A stretch of 64,000 nucleotides of DNA, taken from an uncultured Alphaproteobacteria bacterium (GTDB lineage: Bacteria; Pseudomonadota; Alphaproteobacteria; Rs-D84). The notes beneath the pieces were generated by a model. The model was given only the letters and a program-made list of their open reading frames with translations, was not told the DNA's origin and did not search any database. The stretch lies in NCBI GenBank assembly GCA_934230415.1, contig CAKQEW010000004.1, positions 1,445-65,444 of the forward strand, written 5' to 3'. The position numbers and the translations under genes were made by a program. Position 1 is the stretch's first letter. Every line of letters begins with the position of its first letter. This document shows positions 18,080 through 57,467 of this stretch, piece after piece.

Positions 18080-18322
18080 ATGACACACGAAGATGTATGG
18101 CGCGCCATAGAACGTTTCGCCAATGAACACGGAATGTCGTGTTCGGGTCTGGCCAAGTGCAGTGGGTTGGATCCGACCACATTTAATCGCAGTAAACGCT
18201 ATTCGCGCGCGGGGCAACCGCGCTGGCCATCAACCAACAGCATTTCAAAGATACTGTCATCCACTGGGGCGAATATCGCGGATTTTACCAAGTTTATTGA
18301 AAAATGTCCGGGTCACGATTAA
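18080..18322 (+). CDS. Short HTH protein resembling the N-terminal domain of alphaproteobacterial S24/LexA-like prophage repressors
   Basis: VWRAIERFANEHGMSCSGLAKCSGLDPTTFNRSKR....RWPSTNSISKIL. No S24 peptidase domain follows. Confidence 0.6.
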   Translation: MTHEDVWRAIERFANEHGMSCSGLAKCSGLDPTTFNRSKRYSRAGQPRWPSTNSISKILSSTGANIADFTKFIEKCPGHD

Positions 18323-18831
18323 ATCTGGGTATGTTTTTACAAATGTCACCGCGGGCGCGTCCTGCGGTGATTTTTATGGACAATCGGGCACACGTCGTTT
18401 ATCCTGGACATATGTTAACAGGAATTCGGATTTATTCATCTGATAAAATATGGCGGCATGTGCTGGCCAATCTGAATGCAACGGTACTGGATGCGCCGGA
18501 CGTGACCGCGGTGAATATGGATGATTTGGATGTGCGTTCGCAATGCACCCCCACGGAATTAAAGGCGGCAATTCTGGGCGCGATGGATAACAGCGATATT
18601 ATTCGCGGTGTATTTGGGCGTGATGTCGCATTGGCCCGAATCCCGCGCCAGATTATAATATTGTTGGCGCAAACGGGTGGTATGCGCGCCGCAGATCTGA
18701 AGGTTGCCCTGGGGTATTCCCCAAATGCCACAACGCATACGGTGGATACGGCGATATATCAACTGCGCCGGACATTCGGACATAACATCGTTCAAAATGA
18801 AAATGGGGTGTATAAAATTGGCCGGATATAA
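18304..18831 (+). CDS. Putative winged-helix (OmpR/PhoB C-terminal-like) DNA-binding protein; start uncertain
   Basis: C-terminal TVDTAIYQLRRTFGHNIVQNENGVYKIG resembles the Trans_reg_C recognition helix and wing. Several in-frame Met candidates (18376, 18412). Confidence 0.45.
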   Translation: MSGSRLNLGMFLQMSPRARPAVIFMDNRAHVVYPGHMLTGIRIYSSDKIWRHVLANLNATVLDAPDVTAVNMDDLDVRSQCTPTELKAAILGAMDNSDIIRGVFGRDVALARIPRQIIILLAQTGGMRAADLKVALGYSPNATTHTVDTAIYQLRRTFGHNIVQNENGVYKIGRI

Positions 18832-19530: not shown

Positions 19531-19559
19531 TTGACTTTTATTGCGATTTGTGATACTAT
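19531..19559 (+). promoter_or_regulatory. Consensus-like promoter TTGACT-17-TACTAT
   Basis: -35 at 19531-19536, -10 at 19554-19559, 17-nt spacer. Confidence 0.5.
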
Positions 19560-19585
19560 ATGACACATCAACAAGCAAGATTCTG

Positions 19586-19607
19586 TCCGCATATAGCGGA
19601 TTTTTTT
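19586..19607 (+). terminator. Intrinsic terminator 1 upstream of the lysis genes
   Basis: TCCGC-atata-GCGGA followed by T7. Confidence 0.55.
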
Positions 19608-19619
19608 ATGCTGTTTTTT

Positions 19620-19648
19620 GACCGCGAATTTCATCGCGGTCTTTTTTT
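19620..19648 (+). terminator. Intrinsic terminator 2 upstream of the lysis genes
   Basis: 8-bp stem GACCGCGA-atttca-TCGCGGTC followed by T7. Only 24 nt remain before the endolysin ATG. Confidence 0.8.
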
Positions 19649-19671
19649 ACGCAATACGGGGGAAAATAAAA

Positions 19672-20076
19672 ATGGAACTGATTTTGAATCCAGACCATAC
19701 GCGTGGCGATGCATACAAAATTGCGCGTGTTGTTTATGCCGAAACAGGTGCGACATCGTTGCCATTGGTTGAAGGATTCGCATCAATGATTGCAAATATC
19801 GCACGTGCACGTGGTATATCACCCGTAATGGTTGTGTCTGATGAAAATACGTTTGGTGCGCTGCGTCCGAATAATTCGCGTCATGGCGCATTAAATGTAC
19901 GGCCAGATTCACGTGCGTTTCAAATGTGCCTGCGTGTGGTGACGCGAATGCTGCATGGAAATTTACCAGATTGCTGTAATGGCGCAACACGTTTCCATCG
20001 TGATGATGAAATGCCAGATTGGGCAACATCGCGTGGATATATCGCCGATATTGATGGTGTGCTGTTTTATTTGTAG
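19672..20076 (+). CDS. Cell-wall hydrolase, SleB / Hydrolase_2 family (endolysin)
   Basis: IARVVYAETGATS...MIANIARARG...ATRFHRDDEMPDWA pattern of SleB-type amidase/lysin domains. Confidence 0.75.
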   Translation: MELILNPDHTRGDAYKIARVVYAETGATSLPLVEGFASMIANIARARGISPVMVVSDENTFGALRPNNSRHGALNVRPDSRAFQMCLRVVTRMLHGNLPDCCNGATRFHRDDEMPDWATSRGYIADIDGVLFYL

Positions 20077-20086
20077 TGGTGGTGAT

Positions 20087-20290
20087 ATGCAAAAAATAAT
20101 TAATGGTGGTTTTTTGTCGGACCGGCGCACGCAAATAATGTCATGTGTTGGCGTGTTATCAGCGGTGGCGGCATATGTGGTCGGTGACACGGATGTGTTT
20201 GTCATGTTACAGACGATATTCACATTGGGTGGAATTTATTTTATGAACAAACAAAAAAACAAAGGACATGATGATGGAACAAATTCCTGA
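20087..20290 (+). CDS. Holin-like small membrane protein (two predicted TM helices)
   Basis: 67 aa; GGTGGTGA RBS; hydrophobic stretches IMSCVGVLSAVAAYVV and VFVMLQTIFTLGGIYFM; charged C-terminus; lies directly after the endolysin. Confidence 0.5.
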   Translation: MQKIINGGFLSDRRTQIMSCVGVLSAVAAYVVGDTDVFVMLQTIFTLGGIYFMNKQKNKGHDDGTNS

Positions 20291-20930
20291 AAAATTTAAA
20301 AATTCTGATGGAACATTAAACACAGATGCATTATTGAAATCTTATTCTGAATTGGAAAAGAAAATCGGAACGATGATATCAATACCATCATCCGACAGTG
20401 ATGATGCCGCGCGTGCACGATTTAATCATGCAATTGGTGTGCCCGAATCGGCCGATGAATATCCACAAAATGATTTGTTTGATGATGCTGATGTGCGTAA
20501 AAAATTCTGGGACATAGGTTTAACTTCATCCCAGGTTGAAAAAATTTATCAGGTTGCCCAGGATTTTTTATCACCTGTGTTGTCTGATTTATTTACAGCA
20601 CAACAAACAGAATCAGCAATATCAGAATTGCGAAATTATTTTGGTGGTGATGAAAAAATGCAAACGGCAATGCGTGAAATAAATGCGTTTGGTACGCGTT
20701 TCTTGCCCGCGGATGCGTTTGATGAATTATGTTCCAGTCCCCAGGGAATCCAAGGTGTTTATCAAATGATGCAATCAATGGAACCACATGTACAAACGTC
20801 CGATGCGAATGATACAAATTTATCAGATAATGATTTGCGACGCATGATGCGTAATCCAAAATATTGGCGCGATCATGATTCTGAATACGTGCGAAAAATT
20901 GAAAACGGTTTTAAAAAATTATATTCGTGA
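20268..20930 (+). CDS. Putative phage scaffolding protein
   Basis: N-terminus IPEKFKNSDGTLNTDALLKSYSELEKKIG recalls podovirus scaffold/assembly proteins. Acidic and helical; positioned before the capsid gene. Confidence 0.5.
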   Translation: MMMEQIPEKFKNSDGTLNTDALLKSYSELEKKIGTMISIPSSDSDDAARARFNHAIGVPESADEYPQNDLFDDADVRKKFWDIGLTSSQVEKIYQVAQDFLSPVLSDLFTAQQTESAISELRNYFGGDEKMQTAMREINAFGTRFLPADAFDELCSSPQGIQGVYQMMQSMEPHVQTSDANDTNLSDNDLRRMMRNPKYWRDHDSEYVRKIENGFKKLYS

Positions 20931-21036
20931 TGAAAAATTTTCACTTTCTTCTTTACTAACTTTTATGTTTCATATAAAATATAAAGTAAGAACAAAAAAA
21001 TTTGTTCTATCCAAAAAAATATAAAAGGAGAGAAGA

Positions 21037-21387
21037 ATGGCATTCACATTCTTGAAACCAGCAGCGAAAAAAATTGCTGCGAAAAAACCGGCTGCAAAAC
21101 CAGCAGCAAAAAAAACTGTTGCAAAACCAGCTGCTAAAAAAGTAGCGGCGAAACCAGCAGCAAAGAAAGTTGCGGTTAAAAAGCCAGCGGCGAAAAAACC
21201 AGTCGCAAAGAAAGTCGTTGCGAAAAAACCGGTTGCTAAAAAACCAGTCGCAAAGAAAGTTGTTGCGAAAAAGCCAGCGGCAAAAAAGCCAGTTGCAGTG
21301 AAAAAACCAGTTGCTAAAAAAGCACCTGCGAAAAAAGTCGCTGTGAAAAAGCCTGTTGCGAAAAAAGCACCGGCCAAGAAAAAATAA
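21037..21387 (+). CDS. Lys/Ala/Pro-rich histone H1-like protein (AKKPAAKK repeats)
   Basis: 116 aa made almost entirely of degenerate (P/V)AAKK(P/V)(A/V) repeats. Strong RBS AAGGAGAG; own terminators downstream. Confidence 0.75.
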
Positions 21388-21396
21388 TAAATATTT

Positions 21397-21419
21397 CCCC
21401 ATCGTTTGATGGGGTTTTT
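21397..21419 (+). terminator. Intrinsic terminator
   Basis: ccccatcgtttgatgggg plus T5. Confidence 0.75.
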
Positions 21420-21432
21420 AATTGAAAAAATT

Positions 21433-21468
21433 TTCAGTCGTATCATGTATGCGACTGAATCTTTTTTT
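21433..21468 (+). terminator. Second tandem intrinsic terminator
   Basis: TTCAGTCG-11 nt-CGACTGAA followed by cT7. Confidence 0.65.
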
Positions 21469-21597
21469 ACGGACAATTTCGGGTAACCGAAACCCGCATG
21501 TGTTTGTCATGTGGCGCGATTTCGCATAACCGTGTGATGAATTTTTGTCGGCGCATTTTTGCGTCTGTTTTTATTTATAACCAATGGGGGATTTTTT

Positions 21598-22428
21598 ATG
21601 TCTGTTTCCATAGATAATGTTTTTATTAAACAGTTTGAGGCAGATGTTCATCTGGCATATCAACAGATGGGCACAAAACTGCGCGGGACCGTACGCAGCA
21701 AATCGGGTGTCGTCGGTGCATCCACAACATTTCAAAAGGTTGGACGCGGAACCGCGGCAACAAAATCACGTCATGGCATTGTGCCGGTTATGAACCTGAA
21801 CCATGAACCGGTGGAATGCACATTACAGGATTATTATGCCGGCGATTGGGTTGATGCATTGGATGAATTGAAAACCAATGTTGATGAACGCCGTGTCGTG
21901 GCATGTGCCGGTGCGTACGCGTTGGGTCGCAAAACCGATGAATTGATTGTGAACGCAATGTCGGGCGCAACAACATCGGTTGGTGATTATTCCCAGGGAT
22001 TAAGTAAATCGCTGATTTTATCCGCGGTTGAACAATTAAATGCCAAAGATATCCCAGATGATGGCCGCCGTTTCGCGGTTGTTGGCGTGCACCAGTGGAA
22101 TGAATTACTGGGGATTAACGAATTTGTTTCTGCGGATTACGTTGGTGATGATTTGCCATTGATTTCTGGGGGCGCATCCAAAAAATGGTTGGGTATCACA
22201 TGGGTTCTGTACAACGCATTGCCGTTGACCAGCACGACCCAGCGTGATTGCTTTATTTACCACGCAACCAGTATCGGTCATGCCTGTGGCCAGGAAGTCA
22301 AAACAGATATTTCATGGCATGGTGAACGTGCGGCGCACTTTATCAGCAACAGTATGTCCCAGGGCGCCGTTCTGATTGATGGTGATGGTATCGTTCGTAT
22401 TAAATGCAAAGATACCGATGCCGATTAA
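21598..22428 (+). CDS. Putative major capsid protein
   Basis: 277 aa after the scaffold gene. N-terminus FIKQFEADVHLAYQQMGTKLRGTVR..., as recalled from podovirus capsid proteins. The assignment rests mainly on gene position. Confidence 0.55.
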   Translation: MSVSIDNVFIKQFEADVHLAYQQMGTKLRGTVRSKSGVVGASTTFQKVGRGTAATKSRHGIVPVMNLNHEPVECTLQDYYAGDWVDALDELKTNVDERRVVACAGAYALGRKTDELIVNAMSGATTSVGDYSQGLSKSLILSAVEQLNAKDIPDDGRRFAVVGVHQWNELLGINEFVSADYVGDDLPLISGGASKKWLGITWVLYNALPLTSTTQRDCFIYHATSIGHACGQEVKTDISWHGERAAHFISNSMSQGAVLIDGDGIVRIKCKDTDAD

Positions 22429-22463
22429 TGTTCCACATAAATAAACAACCAAAGGAAAAATAA

Positions 22464-22694
22464 ATGGCGTTTCAGAATAAAAATCTGTCTGTAATTGCAT
22501 ATGCAAATGGTTTTACATTGTGGCACTATGCGGAAAACACGACATTGGCAACAATCACGGCCAGTGGGTATTTTAACAATGTCAAAACACTGATGAACGA
22601 TGGCGATATTGTGATTATTAATGCGTCGGATAAAACGGCGATTAAATCCATCGCGATTGCATCTGGGGCGGTTACAACGGCGGCATTGTCGTAA
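22464..22694 (+). CDS. Small virion-module protein (76 aa)
   Basis: Compact ORF between the capsid and tubular A-like genes (SVIAYANGFTLWHY...GDIVIINA). Confidence 0.5.
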   Translation: MAFQNKNLSVIAYANGFTLWHYAENTTLATITASGYFNNVKTLMNDGDIVIINASDKTAIKSIAIASGAVTTAALS

Positions 22695-22754
22695 ATTTTA
22701 TCGGTATTTTATATATGGGTCGGTGTTCGCGCCGGCCCTGTTTTAATCAAAGGA

Positions 22755-23282
22755 ATGATAGGTATGCTGACCAAAATAGATTTATGTTCCATGGCGTTAC
22801 TGAAACTGGGTGAACGTCCGATACAATCGTTGGTTGATGACAGTGCGGCCGCACAACTGGCGCGGACGTTGTTTGATCCGGTGATTGATGCATTGATTGC
22901 GGCGCATCCGTGGCGATTTGCCACGCGCCAAATTCATATGGTAAAAAATTCAGATGGGGATTTTTTAATCCCGGCGGATGTATTACGCGTGATAAAAACG
23001 TGTGGCGATATTGTTGGCAATAAAATTCATGCCCCCACAGATACGATGGATATTGTTGCGTTGGTACGCGTTGCCCCGGATGCATTCCCGGCGTATTTTG
23101 TGTCAGTGGCGGCAACGCGATTGGCCATGGAATTCTGTGTGCCATTGACCGGTGACCAGAATGTATTTCGCATGTTGGCGGCACTGTATGAATCAGAATT
23201 ACAATCGGCGAAATTCACAGACAGTACCACAGCACCGGCGCATGCCATTGATAATTTTTCATTGCTGAATGCACGGTTTTAA
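22755..23282 (+). CDS. Tail tubular protein A / adaptor-like
   Basis: IDLCSMALLKLGERPIQSLVDDSAAAQLARTLFDPVIDALIAAHPWRFA pattern seen in gp11-like proteins of BPP-1/T7-type podoviruses, in the expected position. Confidence 0.55.
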   Translation: MIGMLTKIDLCSMALLKLGERPIQSLVDDSAAAQLARTLFDPVIDALIAAHPWRFATRQIHMVKNSDGDFLIPADVLRVIKTCGDIVGNKIHAPTDTMDIVALVRVAPDAFPAYFVSVAATRLAMEFCVPLTGDQNVFRMLAALYESELQSAKFTDSTTAPAHAIDNFSLLNARF

Positions 23283-23297
23283 TTTCGGGGGACAATT

Positions 23298-24995
23298 ATG
23301 GGAAATTTCGTAAAAACACAAAATTCGTTTGCCAACGGCGACATTGCCCCAGAATTTTATGGCAACGATAATTTGCACGCGTTGTCACGTCTGGAAAATA
23401 TGGACGTGATGGCGGGCGGTGGGCTGTGCCGACGTGCCGGTTTGACCACGGTTACAGAAATTGCATCAGGGGCGCGACTGGTGCCGTTTTCGGCGGGTAT
23501 GTCCCAGAATTACCTGGTGGCGTTGTTGCCGGGACATATGTACCTGTATTATGGTGGCGTGCGTATCCAAGATATTGTTGCGCCATGGACCGCCGATGAC
23601 ATAGCGTCTGTTCAATATGCCCAGCGTTTTGATACCATGATTTTCGTGCATCCAGAATACAGTCCGCGAATACTGCGCCGTCGGGCATCGCAATTCACGT
23701 TGGATGAATTTGCATTTGCGCGAAATGATGCCGATATGTCACGTGCCCAGCCATTCATGCGATTTGATGATACGTCTGATATCACGATTACTGTTACGGC
23801 ACATGCCAGTGGTAATAACTATGCCACATTTACAACCAACCGTGCGTTTTGGAATTCAAATTATGTGAATACGCGCATATTTGCCATGGACCGGCAATGG
23901 ATAATCCAAGAGGTCACAGATTCCACCACCGCCAAGGCATATACCAATGGGCCGTTCACATTGCCATCTGCGCCAATATCAGAATGGCGTGAATCGGCAT
24001 TCAGTGCCGCACGCGGTTGGCCCGTCAGTATCACGTTTCACCAGGACCGTCTGGTATTCGGTGGGTCGCGTGATTATCCGGCGGGCGTATGGATGTCGCG
24101 TACCGGTGCACACACGAACTTTGATGTCGGCACCGGATTGGATGACCAGGCGATTTTTATCACGTTGCTGTCCAGTCAACGTCAACAGATTTGCACCGTG
24201 GTCAGCAGTGATAATCTGCAAATCCTGACCACAGTTGGCGAATGGGCGATTTCCAGCAAACCATTGACACCATCGTCGGTTGACATAAAGCAACACACGT
24301 CTGTGGGCAGTATTGCCACGCGTTTCCTGGCCCCGCAAAAGATAGAGGGCGCAACCGTATTCGTATCCAGAACCGGTCGCGATATTCGCGAATTGGATTT
24401 GGATGAATTAGGCGAAAATTACAACGCCACAGATTTATGCGCGTTTTCAAAACACCTGGTGCAATCGCCGGTTGATATCGCGTACAACAGTGCTGTGCGC
24501 CAAATGTTCGTTGTTCGCACAGATGGCAAAATGGCGGTGTTGAATCAAAACAGCGCGTTGGGGATATCGGCATGGGGACTGTACACGACCGCCGGTGAAT
24601 TCAAATCGGTTGCGGTCTGTGGCGATGAAACATTTGTGCTGGTGGCGCGCGCGGGAAAATTCTGGATTGAAAAATTTGACGCGACGCAAATGTTGGACGC
24701 GGGCGTTTATACGTTTGACGTTGTGGCGGCCGGATTGCCGCTGCGGGCGTCTGGGCATAACGCGATGCGTGTGCGTATCCGCCAGGTATCCGTACGCATA
24801 CGTGATACACGCACGTTGTTTATAAACGGTGTGCGTGCGGCATTGCCGGATGCGACCGGATTCACCGGTGATGTGGCGGTAACAACACTGGGGTGGACGC
24901 GTAATGCCACCGGTGCGCCATGGACAATTCACACAAACGAACCGTTGCCAATGACAATCATGTCGGTCGTCGTGCGCGGATATTACACAATATAA
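23298..24995 (+). CDS. Tail tubular protein B / nozzle-like
   Basis: N-terminus QNSFANGDIAPEFYGNDNLHALSRLENMDVMAGGGLCRRAGL matches the gp12-like N-terminal pattern (NxxxGxxSP...GGxxRRPG). 565 aa. Confidence 0.55.
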   Translation: MGNFVKTQNSFANGDIAPEFYGNDNLHALSRLENMDVMAGGGLCRRAGLTTVTEIASGARLVPFSAGMSQNYLVALLPGHMYLYYGGVRIQDIVAPWTADDIASVQYAQRFDTMIFVHPEYSPRILRRRASQFTLDEFAFARNDADMSRAQPFMRFDDTSDITITVTAHASGNNYATFTTNRAFWNSNYVNTRIFAMDRQWIIQEVTDSTTAKAYTNGPFTLPSAPISEWRESAFSAARGWPVSITFHQDRLVFGGSRDYPAGVWMSRTGAHTNFDVGTGLDDQAIFITLLSSQRQQICTVVSSDNLQILTTVGEWAISSKPLTPSSVDIKQHTSVGSIATRFLAPQKIEGATVFVSRTGRDIRELDLDELGENYNATDLCAFSKHLVQSPVDIAYNSAVRQMFVVRTDGKMAVLNQNSALGISAWGLYTTAGEFKSVAVCGDETFVLVARAGKFWIEKFDATQMLDAGVYTFDVVAAGLPLRASGHNAMRVRIRQVSVRIRDTRTLFINGVRAALPDATGFTGDVAVTTLGWTRNATGAPWTIHTNEPLPMTIMSVVVRGYYTI

Positions 24996-25017
24996 AAATC
25001 AACAACAGGGGGAAATA

Positions 25018-25368
25018 ATGGGACAATTGGTTTCTGATGTACAACAAGTACTGGATTACAAAAAGAATAAACAACAGGCCGCGACACAACGCCAGAAAAT
25101 ATTGGCTGATATGGCCGCCGATGAACAGACAAAAACAAACCTGGTGAAAAAGGCACTGGCGACCCAGCGTGCGAAATATGGCGCATCTGGGATGTCGGCA
25201 AACACCGGTGTTACCGAGGGGGCGGTTTTGCGCCGTCTGCAATCCGAAACGGCCCAGCCATATGATGAAAAACGCCGGAATTCATTGGAAAAATTGCGCA
25301 AGGTTGGGGCGGCAAAGCCGAACCTGTTAAAGACATTATTGGCGCGATTTGATGATTTGGTTGGATAA
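25018..25368 (+). CDS. Small helical virion/internal protein (116 aa)
   Basis: Position between nozzle and fibre genes; Gln/Lys-rich and helical. Confidence 0.45.
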   Translation: MGQLVSDVQQVLDYKKNKQQAATQRQKILADMAADEQTKTNLVKKALATQRAKYGASGMSANTGVTEGAVLRRLQSETAQPYDEKRRNSLEKLRKVGAAKPNLLKTLLARFDDLVG

Positions 25369-25380
25369 CAGCGGGGGCAT

Positions 25381-25929
25381 ATGATGTATAAAATTTCGTA
25401 TGTTGCCGATGGTACAACCACAGAATTTGCATTCGCGTTTCCATTCTTTCAGGTGGCCGATGTTCATGTTGCAATTGATGATGCGGCAACTGATTTATCA
25501 TACGCGGTTATTCCAAACGACGATTTTACTGGTGGTAATGTTGTGTTTGACGTTGCGCCGGCAACAGATGCCCGCGTGGATATATTTCGCCAGATTTCAT
25601 TATCGCGTGTGATTGATTACCAGCCCACAATGCCAATTGACCCAGAATCATTGAACGCGGATTTTAATTTTCTGTTGGCGGCATTTTGTGATTTAAAGAA
25701 AGTGGATGTTGACCTGGGGCAATGGTCAAACACATTTGATAATGTTATGACATTTTTGAAATACAACATGGCGGTAATTCAAGACAAATTGTCGGGTGGG
25801 GGCGTTATGGGACTGTACCAGAATTTGGTATCGGTATTGGATGGTGCGTTGCCGAAATTGATAAATGATTACGGCCATATCACAGATGTCGCCCCAAACG
25901 AAAATCGCGATGATTACGGCGTTTTATAG
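25381..25929 (+). CDS. Tail fibre protein, T7 gp17 N-terminal-domain type (short, 182 aa)
   Basis: YVADGTTTEFAFAFPFFQVADVHVAID...VDIFRQISLSRVIDYQP...LNADFNFLL parallels the T7 gp17 N-terminus (YQLDGSNRDFNIPFEY..V.V....VDFTDGS..LN). Confidence 0.6.
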   Translation: MMYKISYVADGTTTEFAFAFPFFQVADVHVAIDDAATDLSYAVIPNDDFTGGNVVFDVAPATDARVDIFRQISLSRVIDYQPTMPIDPESLNADFNFLLAAFCDLKKVDVDLGQWSNTFDNVMTFLKYNMAVIQDKLSGGGVMGLYQNLVSVLDGALPKLINDYGHITDVAPNENRDDYGVL

Positions 25930-25933
25930 TTTT

Positions 25934-26521
25934 ATGGACGAATGGAACCATATGCTGGGGATGACAACGCCGGCACATCATCGGCGAATAATGAAATTCT
26001 TGGTTGATGTGTGGACGTCGCCGCCACGACGTGGGTTGTTGATGGCGTTTCGGCATTCTGGAAAATCCAGTGTGGTTGGTATATTTGCGGCATGTGTGCT
26101 GTGCATGCGACCTGAAACACGGATATTGATTTTGTCGGCGGAAAGTACACTGGCAGCGCGTATGGTTGGGCATATTCGCAATATATTGGAAAACCATCCG
26201 CGGTGCAGTGATATGGTGCCACCCGGCCGCCGCACATGGGCATGCAACCAGATAACGGTAAATCGTCCAATTGGTATACGTGAACCATCGGTCGTATGTG
26301 CGGGCATCGCTGGAAATATCACAGGCGCACGTGCGGATTTAATTATCTGTGATGACATAGAGGTTCCAAACACCAGCAATACCGCGCAAAAGCGCGAGAA
26401 GTTGCGCGACCGGTTATGTGAATTGGAATTTATACTGTCGCCCGGCGGAACGATGATTTACATCGGTACGCCGCATACCATGGATACGATTTACCGCACG
26501 GGTGATGAACAATCAGATTGA
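25934..26521 (+). pseudogene. terL: Terminase large subunit, N-terminal ATPase half (gene interrupted)
   Basis: Walker A FRHSGKSS, Walker B ADLIICDD, IGTPHTMDTIY, then a stop after 10 unrelated-looking codons. Confidence 0.75.
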
Positions 26522-27193
26522 TGTTGGTGCATCCGGTGCATTGTCCGATTCCACCGGTTCGCGCGTGCTGATAAACGTACGCAGTTTATGCAACAATTCG
26601 TCGCCGGATTCCCCGAACATCGGCAGATATGTTTCATATTCTGGCATATCAGCCTGTAATTGTGCGCGTGCACGTTCGGACAATGGTTCATTCAACATAT
26701 CCGATGCCACATGCCACAGGTAATATGCGCGATATGTTTTCGTGATGACATTCCATTTGTCCATTAATTCTGGGCGTACCGCCAATGCGGCGCGGATTGC
26801 AACCGGCCACTCGTCACCGAATTTTTTAATAACCGGTAAATTCTGAATCCGTGTCAATCCATCATTATCAGGTGTAAAGTTATCAATCCCATTTTGCAGT
26901 TCCGACCATTCATCATTGGTCAATTGAATCTGGGGAACAATCTGGGCCATCTGGCCGCCATATGGTAACAGTTCGCGTTCAATGGAATCCATTGGGGTTT
27001 TCCCACTGCGCAGGTTTTCAATATGCTGAATCAACATTTTGCCGGTTGGCAATGCGCGCAATTCGCGAATGACATCCAGGTCTGCTTCGTCAACAAAGAC
27101 GCGATTGACCGCTGCCCATCCGCCAAAAATAACGTGTTCCTGGCGGTACAGATTTAACAGTTTTTGTGCAACAACGCTGGCTGTGGTTTTCAT
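26513..27193 (-). CDS. Hypothetical protein (226 aa) in the terL-splitting cassette
   Basis: GGAGAGAGAG RBS region at 27197-27210. Its stop overlaps the stop of the TerL-N ORF. Confidence 0.6.
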   Translation of the reverse strand: MKTTASVVAQKLLNLYRQEHVIFGGWAAVNRVFVDEADLDVIRELRALPTGKMLIQHIENLRSGKTPMDSIERELLPYGGQMAQIVPQIQLTNDEWSELQNGIDNFTPDNDGLTRIQNLPVIKKFGDEWPVAIRAALAVRPELMDKWNVITKTYRAYYLWHVASDMLNEPLSERARAQLQADMPEYETYLPMFGESGDELLHKLRTFISTREPVESDNAPDAPTSI

Positions 27194-27218
27194 GTGGGGC
27201 TCTCTCTCCTGTATGGGG

Positions 27219-28232
27219 TTATTCCATGATAATCATTATGACCTTGTGCATGGTTGGTGCGACAATTTTTTCATCAGGCGATGCGATTTGACCATAAATC
27301 TTGCCACGGGAATCCTGGCGTACACTGGCGATTTGGGCCGTTGCCGCCGTTTCATAATCCAATGTGTCAAAATCAGTATCAACGCACACGGCCAGATCGC
27401 CAACCGCCGGGGTTGCGGTGCTGTCTGCAAATACATATGCGTGTTCCGACATAAATCCGCCCAGGCGTTTTGGATTTGGTACAACGGCATAGATACCCGC
27501 GTGGCCTTCCAGTGACATGGGGGCAACAATCATTGTTTCATCAGATTTTTTGAACGCGATTGCCTTGCCCGATGGCGTGCCGAACACCGGCACCAGTTTC
27601 CGGCGCGCACTGTCATACAATTTGGCGCCATACAAACCGCCATGTTCATGATTGTCCAGACTGGATGCCGGATTATCAGGCACCAATACAGAATTAACAC
27701 GTTCGTTAACCTTGTTAATTTGTTTGTTCAATTCGCCGGATTTATACAATGCCGCGATTCTGTCAAACAGTTTTTCGGCACTGGTCGCGAATGCCTTGGC
27801 CAATGGTTCAATTTCGTTCTGGTATATTTCGCGCTGGCCAACTTCTATCTTGTGATATACAGATAATGTCATCCCGGCGTCATGTGCGATTTGGGCGATG
27901 GTTTTACCCAGTTGCTGGCGCATCTTGCGCAGGCCGCTGCCAAAGACCTTCAGTCCATTGTCTTCGTTATCGTTCAGGCGGCGTTTAATTTCGTCTTGCC
28001 ATTGACCGGCGACGGCGTCATCTTCCTTGATAAAGATATCAGACAGTTTGCATCCCAAAATATTACAGATATTCAGCAACTGTTTCTGGTTCAGGCGACG
28101 GACACCCTTTTCAATCTTGGATATCGCGGACAGGGACAGGTGTGATCGCCGTGCCAATTCGGTCATTTTCATGCCCGCCGCAATACGAATGTTGCGAATG
28201 TTATTTGGAAATATGATTTCTTCTAGGGCCAT
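27219..28232 (-). CDS. Tandem XRE-HTH repressor-like protein with S24 (LexA/CI)-like C-terminal domain
   Basis: Two HTH_3 units (IRIAAGMKMTELARRSHLSLSAISKIEKG and LRKMRQQLGKTIAQIAHDAGMTLSVYHKIEVG). C-terminal LVPVFG...FADSTATPAVGDLAVCV...IASVRQD resembles the GDSM..GD..V..KR fold. Confidence 0.7.
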   Translation of the reverse strand: MALEEIIFPNNIRNIRIAAGMKMTELARRSHLSLSAISKIEKGVRRLNQKQLLNICNILGCKLSDIFIKEDDAVAGQWQDEIKRRLNDNEDNGLKVFGSGLRKMRQQLGKTIAQIAHDAGMTLSVYHKIEVGQREIYQNEIEPLAKAFATSAEKLFDRIAALYKSGELNKQINKVNERVNSVLVPDNPASSLDNHEHGGLYGAKLYDSARRKLVPVFGTPSGKAIAFKKSDETMIVAPMSLEGHAGIYAVVPNPKRLGGFMSEHAYVFADSTATPAVGDLAVCVDTDFDTLDYETAATAQIASVRQDSRGKIYGQIASPDEKIVAPTMHKVIMIIME

Positions 28233-28259
28233 GGCAAAAACTCCTGCGGTTAATATTTC

Positions 28260-28278
28260 TTGACAAAATATTAGTCAA
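28260..28278. promoter_or_regulatory. Inverted repeat TTGAC-9-GTCAA overlapping a minus-strand promoter of the repressor-like gene
   Basis: The minus strand reads TTGACT-17-TATTAA. The palindrome covers the -35 element. Confidence 0.3.
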
Positions 28279-28305
28279 TTTTTGCGCGCGCCGCAAGTAA
28301 AATAA

Positions 28306-29865
28306 TTACAATTCCATATCATCTGGAATGGCCGATGCGTCAATTTGTTCAATTGGTGCATCGTCGCCTGGCATTGGGGTTGACGATTGTGACGTGCCAA
28401 CGGCGAAATCATTTTCACCACGGGCATCCATTTCGTCCAAATTGTCAAACAAACTGTAATCACCAAAGAACGCGGTACGAACGGTTTCTGGACGGCCATG
28501 ACGGTTCTTGCCGATAATAATGTCGGCCTTGCCCCGGGCGCGTTCCAAACGGCGTTGATATGATTCCTGAATTTTATCATTGGTATTGCCAGAAATACGC
28601 TGTGACGGATCGCGGTTTTCCAGATAGTATTCTTCGCGGTACGTGAACATAACAATATCGGCGTCCTGTTCAATAGATCCGGATTCACGCAGGTCGGCCA
28701 ACTGGGGGCGTTTGTCATCGCGGTTTTCAACGCTGCGTGACAACTGGGACAGGGCAATAACCGGTACATCTAATTCCTTGGCCAACATTTTCAGCCCACG
28801 CGTGATTTCAGAAATTTCCTGGACGCGATTATCGCTGCGTCGGCCACCGGGGGACGTCATCAATTGCAGATAGTCAATCACAATCAGTGCAATCCCGCCA
28901 CATTTACGTGCCAGACGGCGCGCACGCGTGCGCATCATTGGCACCGACATGCCGGGCGTGTCGTCAATGTACAATGGCACGCGACTGATTGCGGCGGCGT
29001 ATTGCGACATTTTCAGGAAATCTTCGTCTGAAAACGATCCTTCGCGCATGGCAGATGCCGGAATTTTTGATTGCGATGCCAGCACACGGGTTGCCAACTG
29101 TTCCTGGGACATTTCCAGACTGAAAAACACAACCGCGCCCTTGTACTGTTCATTGGCGCGACCCGATAAAATTGCATTTGCGGCGTTAAACGCGATGTTC
29201 ATGGCCAGGGTCGTTTTACCCATTGCCGGACGACCTGCGATAATAATCAAATCACTGTGGTGCAGGCCGCTGATGGATTTATCCAACGCGTTCAGACCCG
29301 TGGTCAGACCCGACAGTTTTCCGTCGGCCTTGTATGCAACCTCGGCCTCTTTTAATGCGGCGGTCAGTGCGGTTGCGATGGGCGCAACCTCACGCTTGGT
29401 TTCCCCCGCGGCGGCCAGGTTAAATAATTTCTGTTCGGCGGTTTCAATTTGTGTCGTGACCGGGTTATCCAAATCTTCAACAAATGCCTGGTCGGTGATG
29501 GATTGACCCAGTTCAATCAATTCGCGACGCAGTGCGTTTTCATACACGATGCGCGCGTACTGTTCAACGTTCACAACCGTTGCGCCGGCGCCCGCCAATT
29601 GGGTCAGGTAATCAACACCGCCAACCGATTCCAACACACCCTGTTGATCCAGGTAATTTTTCGCCGTGATGATATCAAATGGAATTCCGGCGGCAAATTG
29701 ACGTTCCGCCAGTTTATAGATTTCCTGGTGCGCGGGGTGCGAAAAATGTTCCGGTCGCAGGAATTCGTTTACGCGTTCCAATGCGCGGTTGTTCATCAGC
29801 ACCGCGGCCAGGACGGCCTGTTCGGCCTCTAAATTCGTTGGCAAAGTTTTGGGAGTAAAGTCCAT
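28306..29865 (-). CDS. dnaB: Replicative DNA helicase DnaB
   Basis: NLEAEQAVLAAVL N-terminus, Walker A GRPAMGKTT, VVFFSLEMS, IVIDYLQLM, ALSQLSR, SGSIEQDADIVMF. Start set at MDFTPK (29865), not the 655-aa ORF start. Confidence 0.92.
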   Translation of the reverse strand: MDFTPKTLPTNLEAEQAVLAAVLMNNRALERVNEFLRPEHFSHPAHQEIYKLAERQFAAGIPFDIITAKNYLDQQGVLESVGGVDYLTQLAGAGATVVNVEQYARIVYENALRRELIELGQSITDQAFVEDLDNPVTTQIETAEQKLFNLAAAGETKREVAPIATALTAALKEAEVAYKADGKLSGLTTGLNALDKSISGLHHSDLIIIAGRPAMGKTTLAMNIAFNAANAILSGRANEQYKGAVVFFSLEMSQEQLATRVLASQSKIPASAMREGSFSDEDFLKMSQYAAAISRVPLYIDDTPGMSVPMMRTRARRLARKCGGIALIVIDYLQLMTSPGGRRSDNRVQEISEITRGLKMLAKELDVPVIALSQLSRSVENRDDKRPQLADLRESGSIEQDADIVMFTYREEYYLENRDPSQRISGNTNDKIQESYQRRLERARGKADIIIGKNRHGRPETVRTAFFGDYSLFDNLDEMDARGENDFAVGTSQSSTPMPGDDAPIEQIDASAIPDDMEL

Positions 29866-29890
29866 GTCCAATATAGTATCTAAAAATTTT

Positions 29891-30709
29891 ATGTTTTCAA
29901 CGCCTTTTTTGCGCGGATATAAAACATTGAAAATTCCGATTGTTGATGATGCCGGCGCGTCCACGTGGCCCGAATTATTCCCCGCATCGCGCATTGCCGA
30001 ATTGCGGGACGCGGTGGGGGCGCGGCATTTTGCCGCGCAAATGATGTTACAATGCGTCGCGCCCGAACGTGTGCGTCTGGACCCGGGGGCATTGCATTTA
30101 TATGATGACGCATTTGACGCGCGCAATGCGCAAATCGGCGAACATAAAATTACCGGCGCGGCGATGTATTGGGATCCATCAACCGGGCGCCGTGGTCGCG
30201 ATGGCAGTGTTTGCGTCATGCTGTATCGTGATGATAAATCGCGCGCCATATTTATCCATGATGTGATGTACATGATTGTCCCTGAAAACGATACGCACCC
30301 ATTGGCATCCCAGTGTGATTCTGTGTTGGATTTTATGGCGCGGTATCATATGCGCCGCATAACGATTGAAACCAACGGTATTGGAAATGCATTGCCGGAA
30401 ATTATGCGAAACGCCGCATTGATTGCCGGCGCAGACGTTTCTATAACCCAGATTACAAATAATCGGCCAAAGGTTGACCGAATTCTGGACGCGATTGAAC
30501 CGGCATTGACCGCCGGGCGTATGTATGCGCATCGCCGAATTACCCAGACGCCGTTTGTGGCCGAAATGATGGGATGGTCGCCGGGTGGGGTGGGGCATGA
30601 TGACGGACTGGACGCGGTGGCGGGCGCGATATGTGCCACGCCGACCCCGGTTCGCCCGGTCGGGGCGCCCCCCCACACATTTTCAGCAAATACGAATTTT
30701 ACCGTTTAA
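29891..30709 (+). pseudogene. terL: Terminase large subunit, C-terminal nuclease half (possible restart at ATG 29891)
   Basis: KIPIVDDAGASTWPELF, AAMYWDPSTG, ITIETNGIG, GHDDGLDAVAG. Same strand as the N-terminal half, 3.4 kb downstream. Confidence 0.7.
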
Positions 30710-30736
30710 CGCATATAAAAAAACAAAGGAGAAAAT

Positions 30737-31960
30737 ATGCAAAATAACCTGGAACAAATGTACCGACGTGCGCTGGACATGCGTGCGCCATGGGTTGCGC
30801 GTTGGGATGCCGCAATGCGGTACACAATGCCGACAACAGATGCAGATGCGGCAACGCTGTTTGACGCAACCGCGGCCGATGCGGTGGATAACCTGGCCGC
30901 GTCAATATATTCACTGATGACGCCACCGGAATCACTGTGGTTGACATTGGTGCCGGAAAGCGATGCATCACCCGATGCAGACGCCGCAACGGCGGCATTG
31001 CGCGCACACCTGAACGATTCTAATTTTTATACAACGATTCATCAGTGCTATTTGGATTTGGTGATTCTGGGGACGGCATGCCTGTTTATGGCAGAAACCC
31101 CGATGGGGGCATCGTCGGCATTTTCATTCACCGCGGTACCAATGCGCGATATTGCAATTTTGCCGGGCGCGGTATTTCATACGGCGACAATGCCTGCGCG
31201 TGAAGTCATGGAAAAATACCCGACATGGACGCCACCCACAGAAATTCGTGACCAGATAAAACGCGACCCGGCAATGCCGTTGCGCCTGGTGCAGAGTTTG
31301 GTCGGCACAGAATTCACCGCGTGGTTGGACGTGGGTGGTGACATCCAAAATAACATTGTTGCGCGTGGCACATTTGAAACCAACCCATATATCATTTTCC
31401 GGTGGAGTGTTTTGAGCGGTGAACAATACGGTCGTGGTCCCGTCTTGCGCGCATTGCCAGATATCAAGACAGCAAACAAGGTTGTTGAACTGGTTTTGAA
31501 AAATGCGACCATTGCGGTGTCTGGAATATGGCAGGCCGATGATGACGGTGTCATAAACCTGAATAACATAAACCTGACGCCGGGGGCAATTATTCCAAAG
31601 GCCGTTGGGTCGTCCGGTTTGACGCCGCTGTCATCGGGTGCAGATTTTGATGTGTCACAAATAATACTAAAAGACCTGCGTGAACGGATACGTCATGCAT
31701 TGCTGGCCGACCGGCTGGGATTGTTGTCTGAAAAAGAAATGACGGCGACCGAAATTATGGCACGTAATTCAGATATGATGCGAATCCTGGGGGCGACATA
31801 TGGGCGACTGTTGCATGAATTTATACGGCCACTGACCGACCGCGGATTACAGATTTTATCGCGCCGCGGTGTGATTGCACCAATTGTGCTGAACAGTGAT
31901 GCGGAATTGAAATACATTGCACCGATTGCCCAAATGGTGGCGGACGAAAACCTGATTTAA
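30737..31960 (+). CDS. Portal (head-to-tail connector, T7 gp8-type) protein, short form
   Basis: N-terminus YRRALDMRAPWVARWDAAMRYTMP and the position next to terL. 407 aa is shorter than the ~530 aa of T7 gp8. Confidence 0.6.
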   Translation: MQNNLEQMYRRALDMRAPWVARWDAAMRYTMPTTDADAATLFDATAADAVDNLAASIYSLMTPPESLWLTLVPESDASPDADAATAALRAHLNDSNFYTTIHQCYLDLVILGTACLFMAETPMGASSAFSFTAVPMRDIAILPGAVFHTATMPAREVMEKYPTWTPPTEIRDQIKRDPAMPLRLVQSLVGTEFTAWLDVGGDIQNNIVARGTFETNPYIIFRWSVLSGEQYGRGPVLRALPDIKTANKVVELVLKNATIAVSGIWQADDDGVINLNNINLTPGAIIPKAVGSSGLTPLSSGADFDVSQIILKDLRERIRHALLADRLGLLSEKEMTATEIMARNSDMMRILGATYGRLLHEFIRPLTDRGLQILSRRGVIAPIVLNSDAELKYIAPIAQMVADENLI

Positions 31961-31975
31961 CATGGGGAAAAAACT

Positions 31976-32170
31976 ATGAACGAAATTGAACAGAACTATG
32001 CACGCACGTTTGCGACCACATCTGGCACGGCGGTATTACAGCATTTGCGTCGGATGACAATTGAACGTGTGTTGGGGCCAAATGCAACGGACGCCGAATT
32101 GCGCGGCCTGGAATCCCAGCGCGCGTTGGTGCACATGATTGAAAATATGATATCACGGGGGCGAAAATGA
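31976..32170 (+). CDS. Small phage protein (64 aa, Bbp19-like by recollection)
   Basis: Compact ORF after the portal gene; its stop overlaps the next start (ATGA). Confidence 0.45.
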   Translation: MNEIEQNYARTFATTSGTAVLQHLRRMTIERVLGPNATDAELRGLESQRALVHMIENMISRGRK

Positions 32171-32427
32171 CACAGAAAACAAACGCGCTGGGCGGAATCA
32201 TAGATACATTGCGCGACAGTTGGTTTCTGATTGCATTTGTCGCGGGTATGGTTTATTGGGTTGCGCGCCAGGATTCATCGCTGGCGGATATTCAGCGCGC
32301 AGACACGCGCATTACAACATTGGAAAATCGTACAACGATATTGGAAACGGGTATCGGGCAATTACAGATAAAACTGGACACAATTCGTGATGATGTATCC
32401 TTGATAAAAACCGCCGTTATAAAGTAA
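32167..32427 (+). CDS. Small membrane-anchored coiled-coil protein (86 aa)
   Basis: One TM helix (WFLIAFVAGMVYWVA) followed by a coiled coil. Translationally coupled to the previous ORF. Confidence 0.5.
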   Translation: MTQKTNALGGIIDTLRDSWFLIAFVAGMVYWVARQDSSLADIQRADTRITTLENRTTILETGIGQLQIKLDTIRDDVSLIKTAVIK

Positions 32428-32428
32428 C

Positions 32429-32455
32429 AAAAACGGGGCGGACGCCCCGTTTTTT
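32429..32455. terminator. Bidirectional intrinsic terminator ending the phage-like cluster
   Basis: aaaaacggggcggacgccccgttttt. Confidence 0.8.
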
Positions 32456-37998: not shown

Positions 37999-38562
37999 TC
38001 AACAGTAAACTCGGAATATTACGCGCCAATTTTGGATGGTAATATTTGTTGTTACCCCGGTGTCGCGGTGTGAAACCCATATCGGGTCGCCCCCAACCAT
38101 TTGCCGCACGTGCAGGCCACCGTCATCTGAAAACGCCAGTGGGGTGGGGTTGGCGCGGGTGCCAATGCCGTATGATGCAACAATGTCGTCCGCGCTGTAC
38201 CCGCATTCGGCGGTTTTGCATACCAGTGCCGCCGATACAAAAATTGGGGTGCGGGCGCGGCTGAATATGTATTCTTGGCCTGTGGTGTTGGTCAGTTCCA
38301 TTTCAGACGATGTCAGCATTGTTGGCGCGGTGGTCGCGTGTTTCGCAAACAGTTCATCCCAGAAATCATCAGACACAGACGTGATATCAAATTCTGATTT
38401 TACCACATCGTCGGCACGCGCCAGTGCGAATCCGCCCAGCGTTTCACCATCGTGCACGCGCAGTGTCTTTGTGTCTGTATCCATTGTAATTTCCCCAGAC
38501 ATACCGGTAAAATTGTTGTTCTGTGCGGCGGTGCCGCGGCGAATTTGTAAAATTCGTGCCAT
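37999..38562 (-). CDS. Phage tail-fibre-like protein with Mtd_N / HylP-type N-terminal motif (orphan)
   Basis: MARILQIRRGTAAQNNNFTGMSGEITMDTDTKTLRVHDGETLGG is the RRGT..W....L..GE...DTD....K.GDG motif of phage fibre and Mtd N-termini. Confidence 0.55.
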   Translation of the reverse strand: MARILQIRRGTAAQNNNFTGMSGEITMDTDTKTLRVHDGETLGGFALARADDVVKSEFDITSVSDDFWDELFAKHATTAPTMLTSSEMELTNTTGQEYIFSRARTPIFVSAALVCKTAECGYSADDIVASYGIGTRANPTPLAFSDDGGLHVRQMVGGDPIWVSHRDTGVTTNITIQNWRVIFRVYC

Positions 38563-57458: not shown

Positions 57459-57467
57459 GGAGCAGAC

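Follow-up and report, generated by a model that had tools for sequence, protein, structure and literature searches.

Among the gene transfer agents (GTAs), those of the RcGTA type (Rhodobacter, CcGTA) consist of chromosomal phage-derived structural, packaging and lysis genes that are inherited vertically under purifying selection, without an integrase or phage replication module and with accessory fibre genes that may sit at other loci; the RcGTA particle itself is HK97-type and siphovirus-like. GTA genes are kept under purifying selection even in the very reduced alphaproteobacterial genomes of Rickettsiales and Holosporaceae endosymbionts (PMC9254644). CcGTA is controlled by processive antitermination, in which GafZ bypasses terminators within the cluster (PMC11150451), and the capsid operon of BaGTA from Bartonella has a promoter, an attenuating leader and read-through by the processive antiterminator BrrG (bioRxiv 10.1101/2024.11.20.624540). 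The first GTA-like element reported to be podovirus-like was FpGTA from Faecalibacterium, in 2026 (PMC12946183). Here we analysed a 64-kb stretch of DNA (referred to as the window; contig CAKQEW010000004.1 of assembly GCA_934230415.1) from a Candidatus Enterousia-like gut alphaproteobacterium, in which a cluster of approximately 13 kb (the Enterousia cluster) holds head, tail, packaging and lysis genes of short-tailed phage type and has birA as its left-hand and RNase E/G as its right-hand boundary, as an earlier note on this DNA had stated. We read this cluster as the domesticated, vertically inherited remnant of a temperate podovirus of T7 structural type, selected as a particle-making, GTA-like 'viriform', and put the probability of this reading at roughly 0.6.

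The Enterousia cluster shares with the RcGTA-type elements the gene set, the mode of inheritance and the lack of an integrase or phage replication module listed above, and with CcGTA the presence of in-cluster terminators. Homology to the RcGTA-like Rhodogtaviriformidae was not found: the cluster has a PF19821 capsid, a PF12236 portal, a T7-type scaffold and tubes, and no siphovirus tail genes. It also differs in having a two-piece terminase and a histone H1-like gene, and in lacking a recognised small terminase (TerS), GafA or GafYZ, of which latter two no homologue was seen in the cluster. The likeness is one of genes alone, from which we infer both the Enterousia particles and the label 'GTA'. 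BaGTA is likewise conserved across a whole host-associated alphaproteobacterial genus and likewise has a promoter followed by an attenuating leader, but it has another phage ancestry and is coupled to a run-off replication origin, whereas the only replication gene of the Enterousia cluster is a cellular dnaB; a Q21-like protein was not identified in the cluster. FpGTA resembles the Enterousia element in its gut commensal host, its proposed podovirus-like nature, its near-ubiquity within a genus and the possible location of lysis and fibre genes at a second locus, but differs in its Gram-positive Firmicute host, its candidate TerS and the 8–9-kb packaged host DNA that was measured (PMC12946183). 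The Enterousia element is alphaproteobacterial with T7-type tube proteins, and is likened to FpGTA by description. Because of FpGTA, the earlier note's premise that a podovirus-derived GTA would be new is now dated, and domesticated phage-particle elements as such are known; the unusual features here are the split terminase, the H1-like gene and the T7-type ancestry in Alphaproteobacteria. Literature searches for Enterousia or Rs-D84 combined with GTA or phage found no paper describing the element.

Conservation and vertical inheritance of the cluster

A 177-kb metagenome scaffold (ENA ERZ28614844) contains the window, whose portal gene six further contigs also carry. Relatives of the cluster were found in approximately 205 species-representative genomes and on more than 466 metagenome contigs; 80 of the former loci (portal identity 81–97%) were compared together with 44 IMG/VR fragments and 80 metagenome contigs. 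In the one-genome-per-species collection, the portal relatives were labelled as uncultured Alphaproteobacteria, 'Rickettsiales' or Candidatus Enterousia, with the gut of humans (Hadza), yak, deer, sheep, goat, mouse and chicken as their source, and for one of them (L081) the chromosome is closed at 958,618 bp. Enterousia, a member of the order Rs-D84, has genomes of 0.75–1.0 Mb and lacks the TCA cycle and respiration, as well as many transporters (PMC12306168); the absence of respiration and of many transporters makes these bacteria probably partner-dependent.

Gene order was the same in all of the approximately 55 full-length species loci, running from the capsid gene through a 76-aa open reading frame (ORF), tube A, tube B, a 116-aa ORF, a fibre adaptor gene (where present), the N-terminal piece of the large terminase (TerL-N), a minus-strand insert (226-aa ORF, helix-turn-helix (HTH) regulator, dnaB), the C-terminal piece (TerL-C), the portal and a Bbp19-like gene to an 86-aa ORF. 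The left side, in which a 175-aa ORF, birA, endolysin, holin and scaffold genes follow each other, with the endolysin gene adjoining birA, was conserved in approximately 30 metagenome loci. Across approximately 95–120 loci of different species the ORFs were intact and their order invariant, and incomplete ORF matches lay nearly all at contig ends. The capsid protein was 80–95% identical across species.

Selection was quantified as the ratio of nonsynonymous to synonymous substitution (dN/dS; Nei–Gojobori, NG86) in two bands, for pairs at dS 0.05–0.6 and at dS 0.6–1.5, of which the upper yields approximate values since dS is near saturation in many species pairs. Over all cluster genes dN/dS ranged from 0.03 to 0.33, similar to host genes. 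In the lower and upper band, respectively, values were 0.03 and 0.07 for the capsid, 0.05 and 0.08 for the portal, 0.035 and 0.125 for TerL-N, 0.11 and 0.20 for TerL-C, 0.12 and 0.18 for tube A, 0.08 and 0.18 for tube B, 0.18 and 0.33 for the endolysin and 0.08 and 0.25 for the holin, with approximately 0.2 for the scaffold. The small ORFs gave 0.03–0.10 (76-aa), 0.04–0.19 (116-aa), 0.09–0.13 (fibre N-domain) and 0.04–0.16 (86-aa), and the insert genes 0.06–0.20 (226-aa), 0.025–0.08 (337-aa HTH regulator) and 0.04–0.07 (dnaB). As host controls, rne gave 0.01 and 0.025, lpg 0.03 and 0.08, rph 0.03 and 0.14, and ackA 0.03 and 0.09. Twenty species have in common a flanking block made up of a BamA-like gene with two neighbours; among them, the pairwise distances of proteins from the cluster correlated with those of flanking host proteins (Pearson 0.76–0.93), compared with 0.85–0.93 among the host proteins themselves. 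The cluster is moreover retained in strongly reduced genomes of 0.75–1.0 Mb, and has never been broken, although its right flank has been rearranged many times.

Intact ORFs, low dN/dS and co-divergence contradict decay, recent acquisition and a mobile phage, and these comparative data show a full short-tailed head, tail, packaging and lysis set to have been fixed in the chromosome since before the Enterousia radiation. We are very confident that this is a domesticated element under selection and not a prophage in decay. It has several of the marks of a GTA or viriform, namely phage-derived particle genes that are chromosomal and vertically inherited, purifying selection on every gene, and no self-propagation genes among the larger ORFs of the window and the flanks of relatives. 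Within that same scope no integrase, excisionase or phage replication module was found (the larger ORFs of all 64 kb having been scanned against Pfam), no tRNA lies beside the cluster and no flanking att-like repeat was detected, all in agreement with the earlier note, as is the lack of a TerS in the cluster. Because an integrase, a phage replication module and ejection proteins of gp15/16 size were not found, the element is, as judged by its genes, incapable of self-propagation.

The earlier note had left open whether the cluster was a domesticated GTA-like element or a prophage in plain decay. If it were in decay, its genes would be functionless leftovers and the split would simply have disrupted the terminase. 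What could be taken as decay is the interrupted TerL, the missing integrase, TerS and large internal proteins, the absence of the fibre adaptor gene in about one third of species, and a deletion from capsid to TerL-N in one lineage. However, the ORFs are intact and in the same order in approximately 100 loci, including species with near-saturated synonymous sites; every gene, both TerL halves included, shows the low dN/dS given above, with catalytic motifs largely invariant; regulatory hairpins are kept via compensatory changes; and the cluster persists in genomes as small as 0.75–1.0 Mb. A revival via recent horizontal copies is opposed by the co-divergence with host proteins. We therefore consider decay refuted for practical purposes and domestication the favoured side of that alternative. 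The conservation and dN/dS comparison that the note had proposed thus turned out for domestication, and none of the contrary outcomes it had named occurred: the cluster is found well beyond a single strain, dN/dS shows no elevation, and neither further frameshifts nor an adjacent integrase or phage replication module were found.

The closest phage portals are only 26–36% identical and belong to HTVC010P-type pelagiphages, Methylophilales phage MEP301 and Yersinia phage YeP4, while TerL is approximately 28% identical to that of the closest phages. The nearest portal, at 42% identity, lies on an unannotated 5-kb faecal contig, and no free phage genome above that portal identity was found. These T7-structural podoviruses hold the closest relatives of the portal, TerL, tube proteins and fibre N-domain, and share with the cluster the logic of portal, small ORF, scaffold, capsid, tube A, tube B and, further on, TerL, but differ in having an integrase, replication genes, three large internal virion proteins and a one-gene TerL. 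The temperate YeP4, for example, encodes an integrase, repressor, DNA polymerase, primase, helicase, three large internal proteins and a single TerL. Of the T7-type traits, homologues of portal gp8, scaffold gp9, capsid gp10 and tubular gp11/gp12 are present in the cluster, and a gp14–gp16 core, phage replication and transcription genes, an integrase with att sites, and a single-chain large terminase plus small terminase are not. The portal precedes the scaffold in the phages, YeP4 among them, whereas the Enterousia cluster starts with the lysis genes and has its portal block after TerL; the Enterousia gene order is thus rearranged, and the permutation that the earlier note had seen relative to T7 extends to temperate YeP4.

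Virus-prediction pipelines call the stretch from the capsid gene to the 86-aa ORF viral (44 IMG/VR entries, named 'Caudoviricetes sp.'), and the nearest phages (YeP4, HTVC010P-type) include temperate ones, as would suit an active temperate phage or satellite that integrates by birA and has its other genes elsewhere or from a helper. This explanation is nevertheless most improbable. The IMG/VR entries with this portal are 10–12-kb cuts of the host locus that start from the capsid gene and include dnaB, free phages with a portal above 42% identity were not found, as noted, and a megablast search with the window's first 50 kb, the entire cluster included, matched none of 50,697 phage records. The cluster moreover has a fixed chromosomal position, diverges with its host, has no integrase among the larger ORFs scanned and no att site, and encloses an essential cellular gene.

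The split terminase and the other particle genes

The large terminase is encoded on the plus strand in two pieces that lie 3.35 kb apart, TerL-N (25934–26521) with the ATPase core and TerL-C (29864–30709, alternative start 29891) with the linker/lid and the RNase H-like nuclease. The gap holds three minus-strand genes for a 226-aa protein (26513–27193), a 337-aa regulator with two XRE-type HTH domains (27219–28232; Pfam HTH_3 3e-21 over two stretches, and repressor PHROGs) and the cellular replicative DNA helicase DnaB (28306–29865). The earlier note had recognised the split but described the run of genes as co-directional throughout, which these three genes contradict, and had overlooked the opposite-strand dnaB insert, together with a displaced fibre-type gene and the terminator-rich leader (see below).

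TerL-N aligns to residues 52–216 of T7-type terminase (PDB 4bij/8dgc, E 3.5e-24) and carries a Walker A motif (AFRHSGKS), a Walker B motif (ADLIICDDIE) and a C-motif (IGTPHT). TerL-C matches Pfam Terminase-T7_RNaseH-like and Terminase_6C with nuclease motifs YWDPS, IETNG and HDDGLDA, and its AlphaFold (AF2) model (pLDDT 80) matches T7-type terminase 8dgc_E at E 1.4e-12, as well as the nuclease domains of P22, Sf6, SPP1 and herpesvirus terminases. The catalytic motifs are largely invariant, those of the ATPase in 72 species and those of the nuclease in 77. On the phrog_38 profile, the N piece covers positions 290–459 and the C piece 466–701. An exhaustive search for unsplit relatives yielded proteins of 472–510 aa with approximately 50% identity, in which the break maps to a linker of 2–16 residues between '...GTPH..(T/S)IY' and 'FL.G(Y/F)'; by these alignments, no terminase sequence is lost at the break and there is no space for an intein. 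The start codons of dnaB and TerL-C overlap in a CATG that is kept in 103 distinct sequences. When the TerL-C of a divergent contig was used as query, 505 homologues were retrieved, and all 120 of the 120 listed were stand-alone ORFs of 261–374 aa; judged from sequence, the terminase split predates the genus.

A split intein or intron was rejected, given only ~7–13 extra residues at the break and an insert on the opposite strand, and so was an excision or inversion that would rebuild TerL, there being no direct repeats at both junctions and no recombinase found. The sole imperfect inverted repeat (19 nt, 26494–26512 and 29789–29807) is probably due to chance, since it lies within dnaB and is one of 40 similar pairs. 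Phage 'genes in pieces' are exemplified by Aeromonas phage Aeh1, whose NrdA is split by a homing-endonuclease gene. The terminase resembles it as an enzyme gene cut into two ORFs at a tolerant site, both retained and presumably reassembling, but the terminase is interrupted not by a mobile endonuclease gene but by dnaB, essential to the cell, which may have neighbours or not and may lie in either orientation; unlike the Aeh1 case, moreover, the split has been kept while an entire bacterial lineage radiated. Literature searches on split terminases found nothing relevant.

The DnaB of the window passes the NCBIfam equivalog NF006606 (612 bits, cut-off 540), fails the phage_DnaB model (416 bits, cut-off 498) and has bacterial DnaB as its best PDB matches, and is therefore a cellular helicase and not a phage replication gene. 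The earlier note's statement that the cluster has no replication genes is thus literally wrong, but holds in the sense that this dnaB is of the cellular type. Neither the 226-aa protein (1241 homologues) nor the C-terminal region of the 337-aa regulator has a family match; the AF2 model of the former is all-helical (pLDDT 77.8), with no PDB fold match (best E 0.3).

At the terminase break dnaB is also found, on either strand, in two of three contigs from divergent lineages. Locus L203, with a capsid 72% and a tube B 35% identical to those of the window, has the order TerL-N, dnaB (minus), 834-aa ORF (minus), TerL-C, and L209 the order TerL-N, dnaB (plus), TerL-C. In the latter, hairpin-forming direct repeats of approximately 40 nt (for example AAACAATAAGTCATCCCGGTGCTTGACACCGGGATCTTGC, which occurs twice) fill the spacers flanking dnaB (8150–8330 and 9850–10010). 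At L208, TerL-C and portal stand apart from the remaining set, which indicates that the element is dispersed there. L210 (GCA_016927735.1, JAFGMC010000006.1) has a deletion from the capsid gene through the first two thirds of TerL-N, leaving a 72-aa remnant at 6464–6682, and retains birA, endolysin, holin, scaffold and H1-like genes as well as the insert, TerL-C and portal. The unsplit TerL relatives (P0364, P0363 and P0367, in contexts L212, L214/L215 and L216) are approximately 50% identical to TerL-N and come from high-GC genomes. One setting is chromosomal-looking, with a lone TerL and two small ORFs amid GST, LysR and MurJ genes; a second reads fibre, 122-aa ORF, TerL, 106-aa ORF, Hydrolase_2, GTA_holin_3TM; and in a third, a cluster, a host-like ODP gene separates scaffold from capsid. 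These contexts may represent a wider family of chromosomal T7-module elements.

The other gene identities listed in the earlier note proved real in family searches, or by hydropathy in the case of the holin, and all lie on the plus strand. The lysis set consists of the endolysin (19672–20076), a SleB/Hydrolase_2-like cell-wall hydrolase (phrog_938 endolysin, 1.6e-7; the Pfam Hydrolase_2 match of 7e-4 is weak and under the Pfam cut-off), a holin-like 67-aa protein (20087–20290) with two hydrophobic segments, a charged C-terminus and a conserved position, and the conserved 86-aa protein (32167–32427), which has an N-terminal membrane segment and a coiled coil and is putatively spanin-like; the last two have no family match. 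Head proteins are the T7 gp9-like scaffold (20268–20930; Pfam Phage_T7_Capsid 2e-7, phrog_3742 4.7e-14), the major capsid protein (21598–22428; Pfam Phage_capsid_2 (PF19821) 6.5e-70, phrog_3437 7e-71) and the portal, a T7 gp8-type head-tail connector (30737–31960; Pfam Head-tail_con (PF12236) 2e-84), which in all lineages is followed by the Bbp19-like small protein (31976–32170; Pfam Phage_Bbp19 4.9e-11). Between scaffold and capsid lies the gene for the basic H1-like protein with Lys/Ala/Pro repeats (21037–21387; Pfam HC2 7.5e-16); a KAP-rich ORF occupies that interval in 46 of the 46 other loci that span it, and the gene also occurs in the divergent L203. The 76-aa protein after the capsid (22464–22694; phrog_18004 5e-13) is intact in 92 loci. 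Scaffold, 76-aa and portal genes have in common an A-rich translation-initiation motif (..AAAcAAAGGA; 20248–20266, 22438–22456 and 30712–30730). A 21-nt repeat, ACcCGcATGTGTTTGTCATGT, occurs in 90% identical copies in the holin gene before the scaffold (20187–20207) and before the capsid gene (21492–21512), with moderate conservation only across species.

The tail is represented by tubular protein A (gp11-like adaptor, 22755–23282; phrog_394 6.6e-32, Pfam Tube weak) and tubular protein B (gp12-like nozzle, 23298–24995; phrog_376 1.4e-84), the latter 28% identical to its YeP4 homologue. They are followed by the 116-aa helical protein (25018–25368), whose match to Pfam T7_gp14 (E=0.03) is under the cut-off; in the unsplit relative L212 an ORF at the same position has a faint T7_gp14 match, and the protein is possibly a gp14-like internal or ejection protein. 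The earlier note's remark that internal proteins of gp14–16 size are missing therefore stands for gp15/16 and is weakened for gp14.

The 182-aa tail-fibre N-terminal (particle-attachment) domain (25381–25929; 12 tail/fibre PHROGs) matches the N-terminus of the 465-aa YeP4 fibre, and its gene is cleanly absent from about one third of species; by this match, the protein is likely an adaptor. The note had seen this domain as the whole of the fibre, and the adaptor was confirmed, but a second fibre-type gene encodes a 187-aa Mtd_N-domain protein 5.5 kb right of the cluster (37999–38562, minus strand; Pfam Mtd_N 2.7e-14, phrog_9648 tail protein). In many species, a plus-strand Mtd_N gene of 154–188 aa lies directly 3′ of the 86-aa ORF, and by comparison the gene has been displaced in the window. 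The N-terminal ~50 aa of the Mtd_N proteins are conserved and the remainder is variable. Upstream of the Mtd_N gene lies that of a 791-aa helical protein of uncertain membership (38673–41048, minus strand) without a family match; it was rejected as a universal ejection protein, as it adjoins Mtd_N only in the window, L041 and L047 and belongs to no family.

Rearrangements are concentrated in the right flank, a hot spot where several alternative blocks of host genes are found in either orientation, and a multi-copy family of 280–470-aa proteins, often in tandem arrays, occurs downstream of the 86-aa ORF (L003–L082 flanks). Elsewhere, the window is an ordinary stretch of chromosome (gap, miaA, priA, lpxI, an OMP gene, a tRNA methyltransferase gene and birA; rne, rph, ackA, transporters and four tRNAs), to which the cluster is similar in G+C; an Rfam scan of the window revealed tRNAs only. 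A VirB11-type ATPase is encoded at 11867–12826, and VirB8-family genes lie by the BamA-like gene in L210 and other relatives, so that type IV secretion-like genes occur in these tiny genomes. A low-GC (37–40%) stretch at 54184–60502, adjoining tRNA-Asn (60788–60863), resembles a defence island and encodes an OLD-family AAA_15/AAA_21 plus TOPRIM ATPase (54184–55743), an HsdM_N fragment (56979–57458), a subtilase-domain protein (58570–59913) and a GNAT protein (59915–60502).

Promoter, terminators and candidate control

Just after birA lies a plus-strand sigma-70-type promoter (19531–19559) with a TTGACT box, a 17-nt spacer and a TG-extended TACTAT (TGnTACTAT), of which the –35 and extended –10 elements are conserved in 39 distinct leaders and also in L210 and the divergent L203. 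The 5′ leader that follows (19560–19671) holds a conserved stretch (CATCAA..), two tandem intrinsic terminators (19585–19607 and 19620–19648), and then the Shine-Dalgarno sequence, after which the endolysin gene starts. Because indels precluded an RNAalifold consensus of the leader, hairpins were counted per sequence: two detectable sites of hairpin plus T-run were present in 36 of the 39 distinct leaders, the remaining three showing two by eye, while among random 162-nt control segments 178 of 195 had no terminator-like site at all. The stems vary in sequence among species with their pairing retained. The promoter-terminator layout is also found in L210, and in L203 with one terminator.

Further plus-strand terminators mark two internal junctions. 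Two in tandem lie between the H1-like and capsid genes (21397–21466), with 124 of 133 distinct sequences having at least two terminator-like sites ahead of the capsid gene, and one follows the capsid/76-aa unit (22717–22745) at the same position as T7 Tphi, with one site in 122 of 141 distinct sequences. The remaining gene junctions are nearly free of terminators, and the cluster ends at a bidirectional terminator (32429–32454).

A promoter followed by one or more terminators before lysis and morphogenesis genes is a trait of Q-type late operons. The lambdoid late operon (pR'-tR'-Q) similarly has a strong promoter, a short terminated leader, lysis and then morphogenesis genes, and more terminators, but the Enterousia leader has two tandem terminators, and no Q-family protein or qut-like element was identified. 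The conserved promoter and tandem terminators imply, as far as layout can tell, a late operon gated by antitermination, for which the CATCAA stretch of the leader would be a candidate antiterminator site. The 175-aa ORF (18304–18831) is a candidate regulator: it always lies directly upstream of birA, stays together with birA and the cluster promoter even if the outer flank is a different one, and has a sub-threshold OmpR-type winged-helix match (Trans_reg_C, E 0.07).

Proposed mechanism and biological meaning

We propose that the constitutive-looking promoter after birA fires into the two tandem terminators, which would keep the cluster normally silent, and that in a subset of cells an antiterminator or activator would allow read-through of the leader and the three internal terminators. 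Scaffold, capsid and portal would then build a procapsid, to be filled by a terminase acting as two non-covalently associated polypeptides (ATPase core; lid and nuclease). Because no TerS is recognisable, packaging initiation would likely be of low sequence specificity and the cargo cellular DNA, although an absent TerS is only suggestive as a pointer to random packaging of host DNA. The basic H1-like protein may condense or accompany the packaged DNA, the tail would be completed by the gp11/gp12-like tube proteins, the fibre adaptor and the small variable Mtd_N protein, and the producer cell would be lysed by the holin, endolysin and spanin-like protein. That the element transfers host DNA between cells is a step beyond particle formation, which we put forward tentatively and at somewhat less than even odds.

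Several points weigh against this proposal. The main doubts on host-DNA cargo and its delivery come from the missing ejection proteins and TerS: Pfam, PHROG and NCBIfam searches of the cluster gave no family match for TerS, and no ejection protein of gp15/16 size was found in it, the sole gp14-like match being sub-threshold, which leaves DNA delivery into a recipient cell unexplained. If it is T=7, a capsid of the T7 type could have room for more DNA than the ~13 kb of the cluster, so that cargo smaller than the coding locus, as expected of a GTA, may not apply. Searches of the cluster gave no Q-family or other family match for an antiterminator protein, and the 226-aa insert protein was rejected as a Q-like antiterminator, as its AF2 model has no significant PDB match. 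The terminase is cut inside its ATPase domain, and its function is deduced from selection, for which the upper-band dN/dS values are approximate as stated; the deletion in L210 indicates that the element can be lost; and the whole data set consists of metagenome assemblies.

The lack of a gp15/16-size ejection core and of TerS would fit a domesticated particle with a role other than gene transfer, such as a killer particle, programmed lysis (supplying kin or a biofilm with DNA or nutrients), a device that acts as decoy or against phages, or interaction with the animal host or partner cells. The C-terminal parts of the Mtd_N proteins diverge rapidly, as expected for target recognition, repurposing of symbiont GTA remnants has been raised (PMC9254644), PBSX has been cited as a GTA-like element acting as a tailocin (PMC12946183), and Enterousia is probably partner-dependent (PMC12306168). 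On the other hand, the portal and both terminase halves are among the best-conserved genes and have intact ATPase and nuclease motifs, which argues that DNA packaging itself is selected, and a short podovirus tail lacks contractile killing machinery; we consider a non-transfer role unlikely, albeit a serious contender. Very unlikely, in our view, is that no particle is made and that the phage genes were separately co-opted for cellular jobs (the endolysin in wall turnover, the H1-like protein in the nucleoid), their clustering being historical. The H1-like and dnaB genes are plausibly cellular, and host genes stand between those of the cluster in L203, L209 and L212, the cluster being dispersed in L208, but cellular jobs are hard to imagine for capsid, scaffold, portal, tubes, fibre adaptor and both terminase domains that are co-conserved and jointly under purifying selection, and the shared terminator-gated operon layout argues for co-expression.

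More speculatively, the GTA-like viriform could be an independently domesticated T7-type GTA, near-universal in an order-level clade, that combines a split TerL, an H1-like protein and a possible commitment switch, a joint reading that we hold to be rather doubtful. All three features would be without a reported GTA precedent: the first is a terminase working as two polypeptides, its gene split in the linker by dnaB; the second is an H1-like protein encoded between scaffold and capsid, possibly as a packaged partner that condenses DNA; and the third is possibly an Enterousia commitment switch, in which late transcription, once antiterminated, would need to cross the repressor-like gene and dnaB in antisense to arrive at TerL-C and portal.

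If particles with host DNA are made, an abundant uncultured gut group, whose carriers live in humans, ruminants, rodents, birds and probably termites with genomes below 1 Mb, would own a built-in gene-exchange device. It would derive from a phage type not known as domesticated in Alphaproteobacteria, and would be a second independent case of genome-reduced host-associated bacteria keeping costly, lysis-dependent particles, for which recombination against mutational decay, or interaction with the host or a partner, are candidate reasons. The two-piece terminase is a natural experiment on tolerated cut sites in a viral packaging motor, and dnaB within the terminase an unusual, datable synteny marker of the lineage. 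Recognising the cluster as cellular would, finally, purge a recurrent false 'Caudoviricetes' virus from gut virome catalogues.

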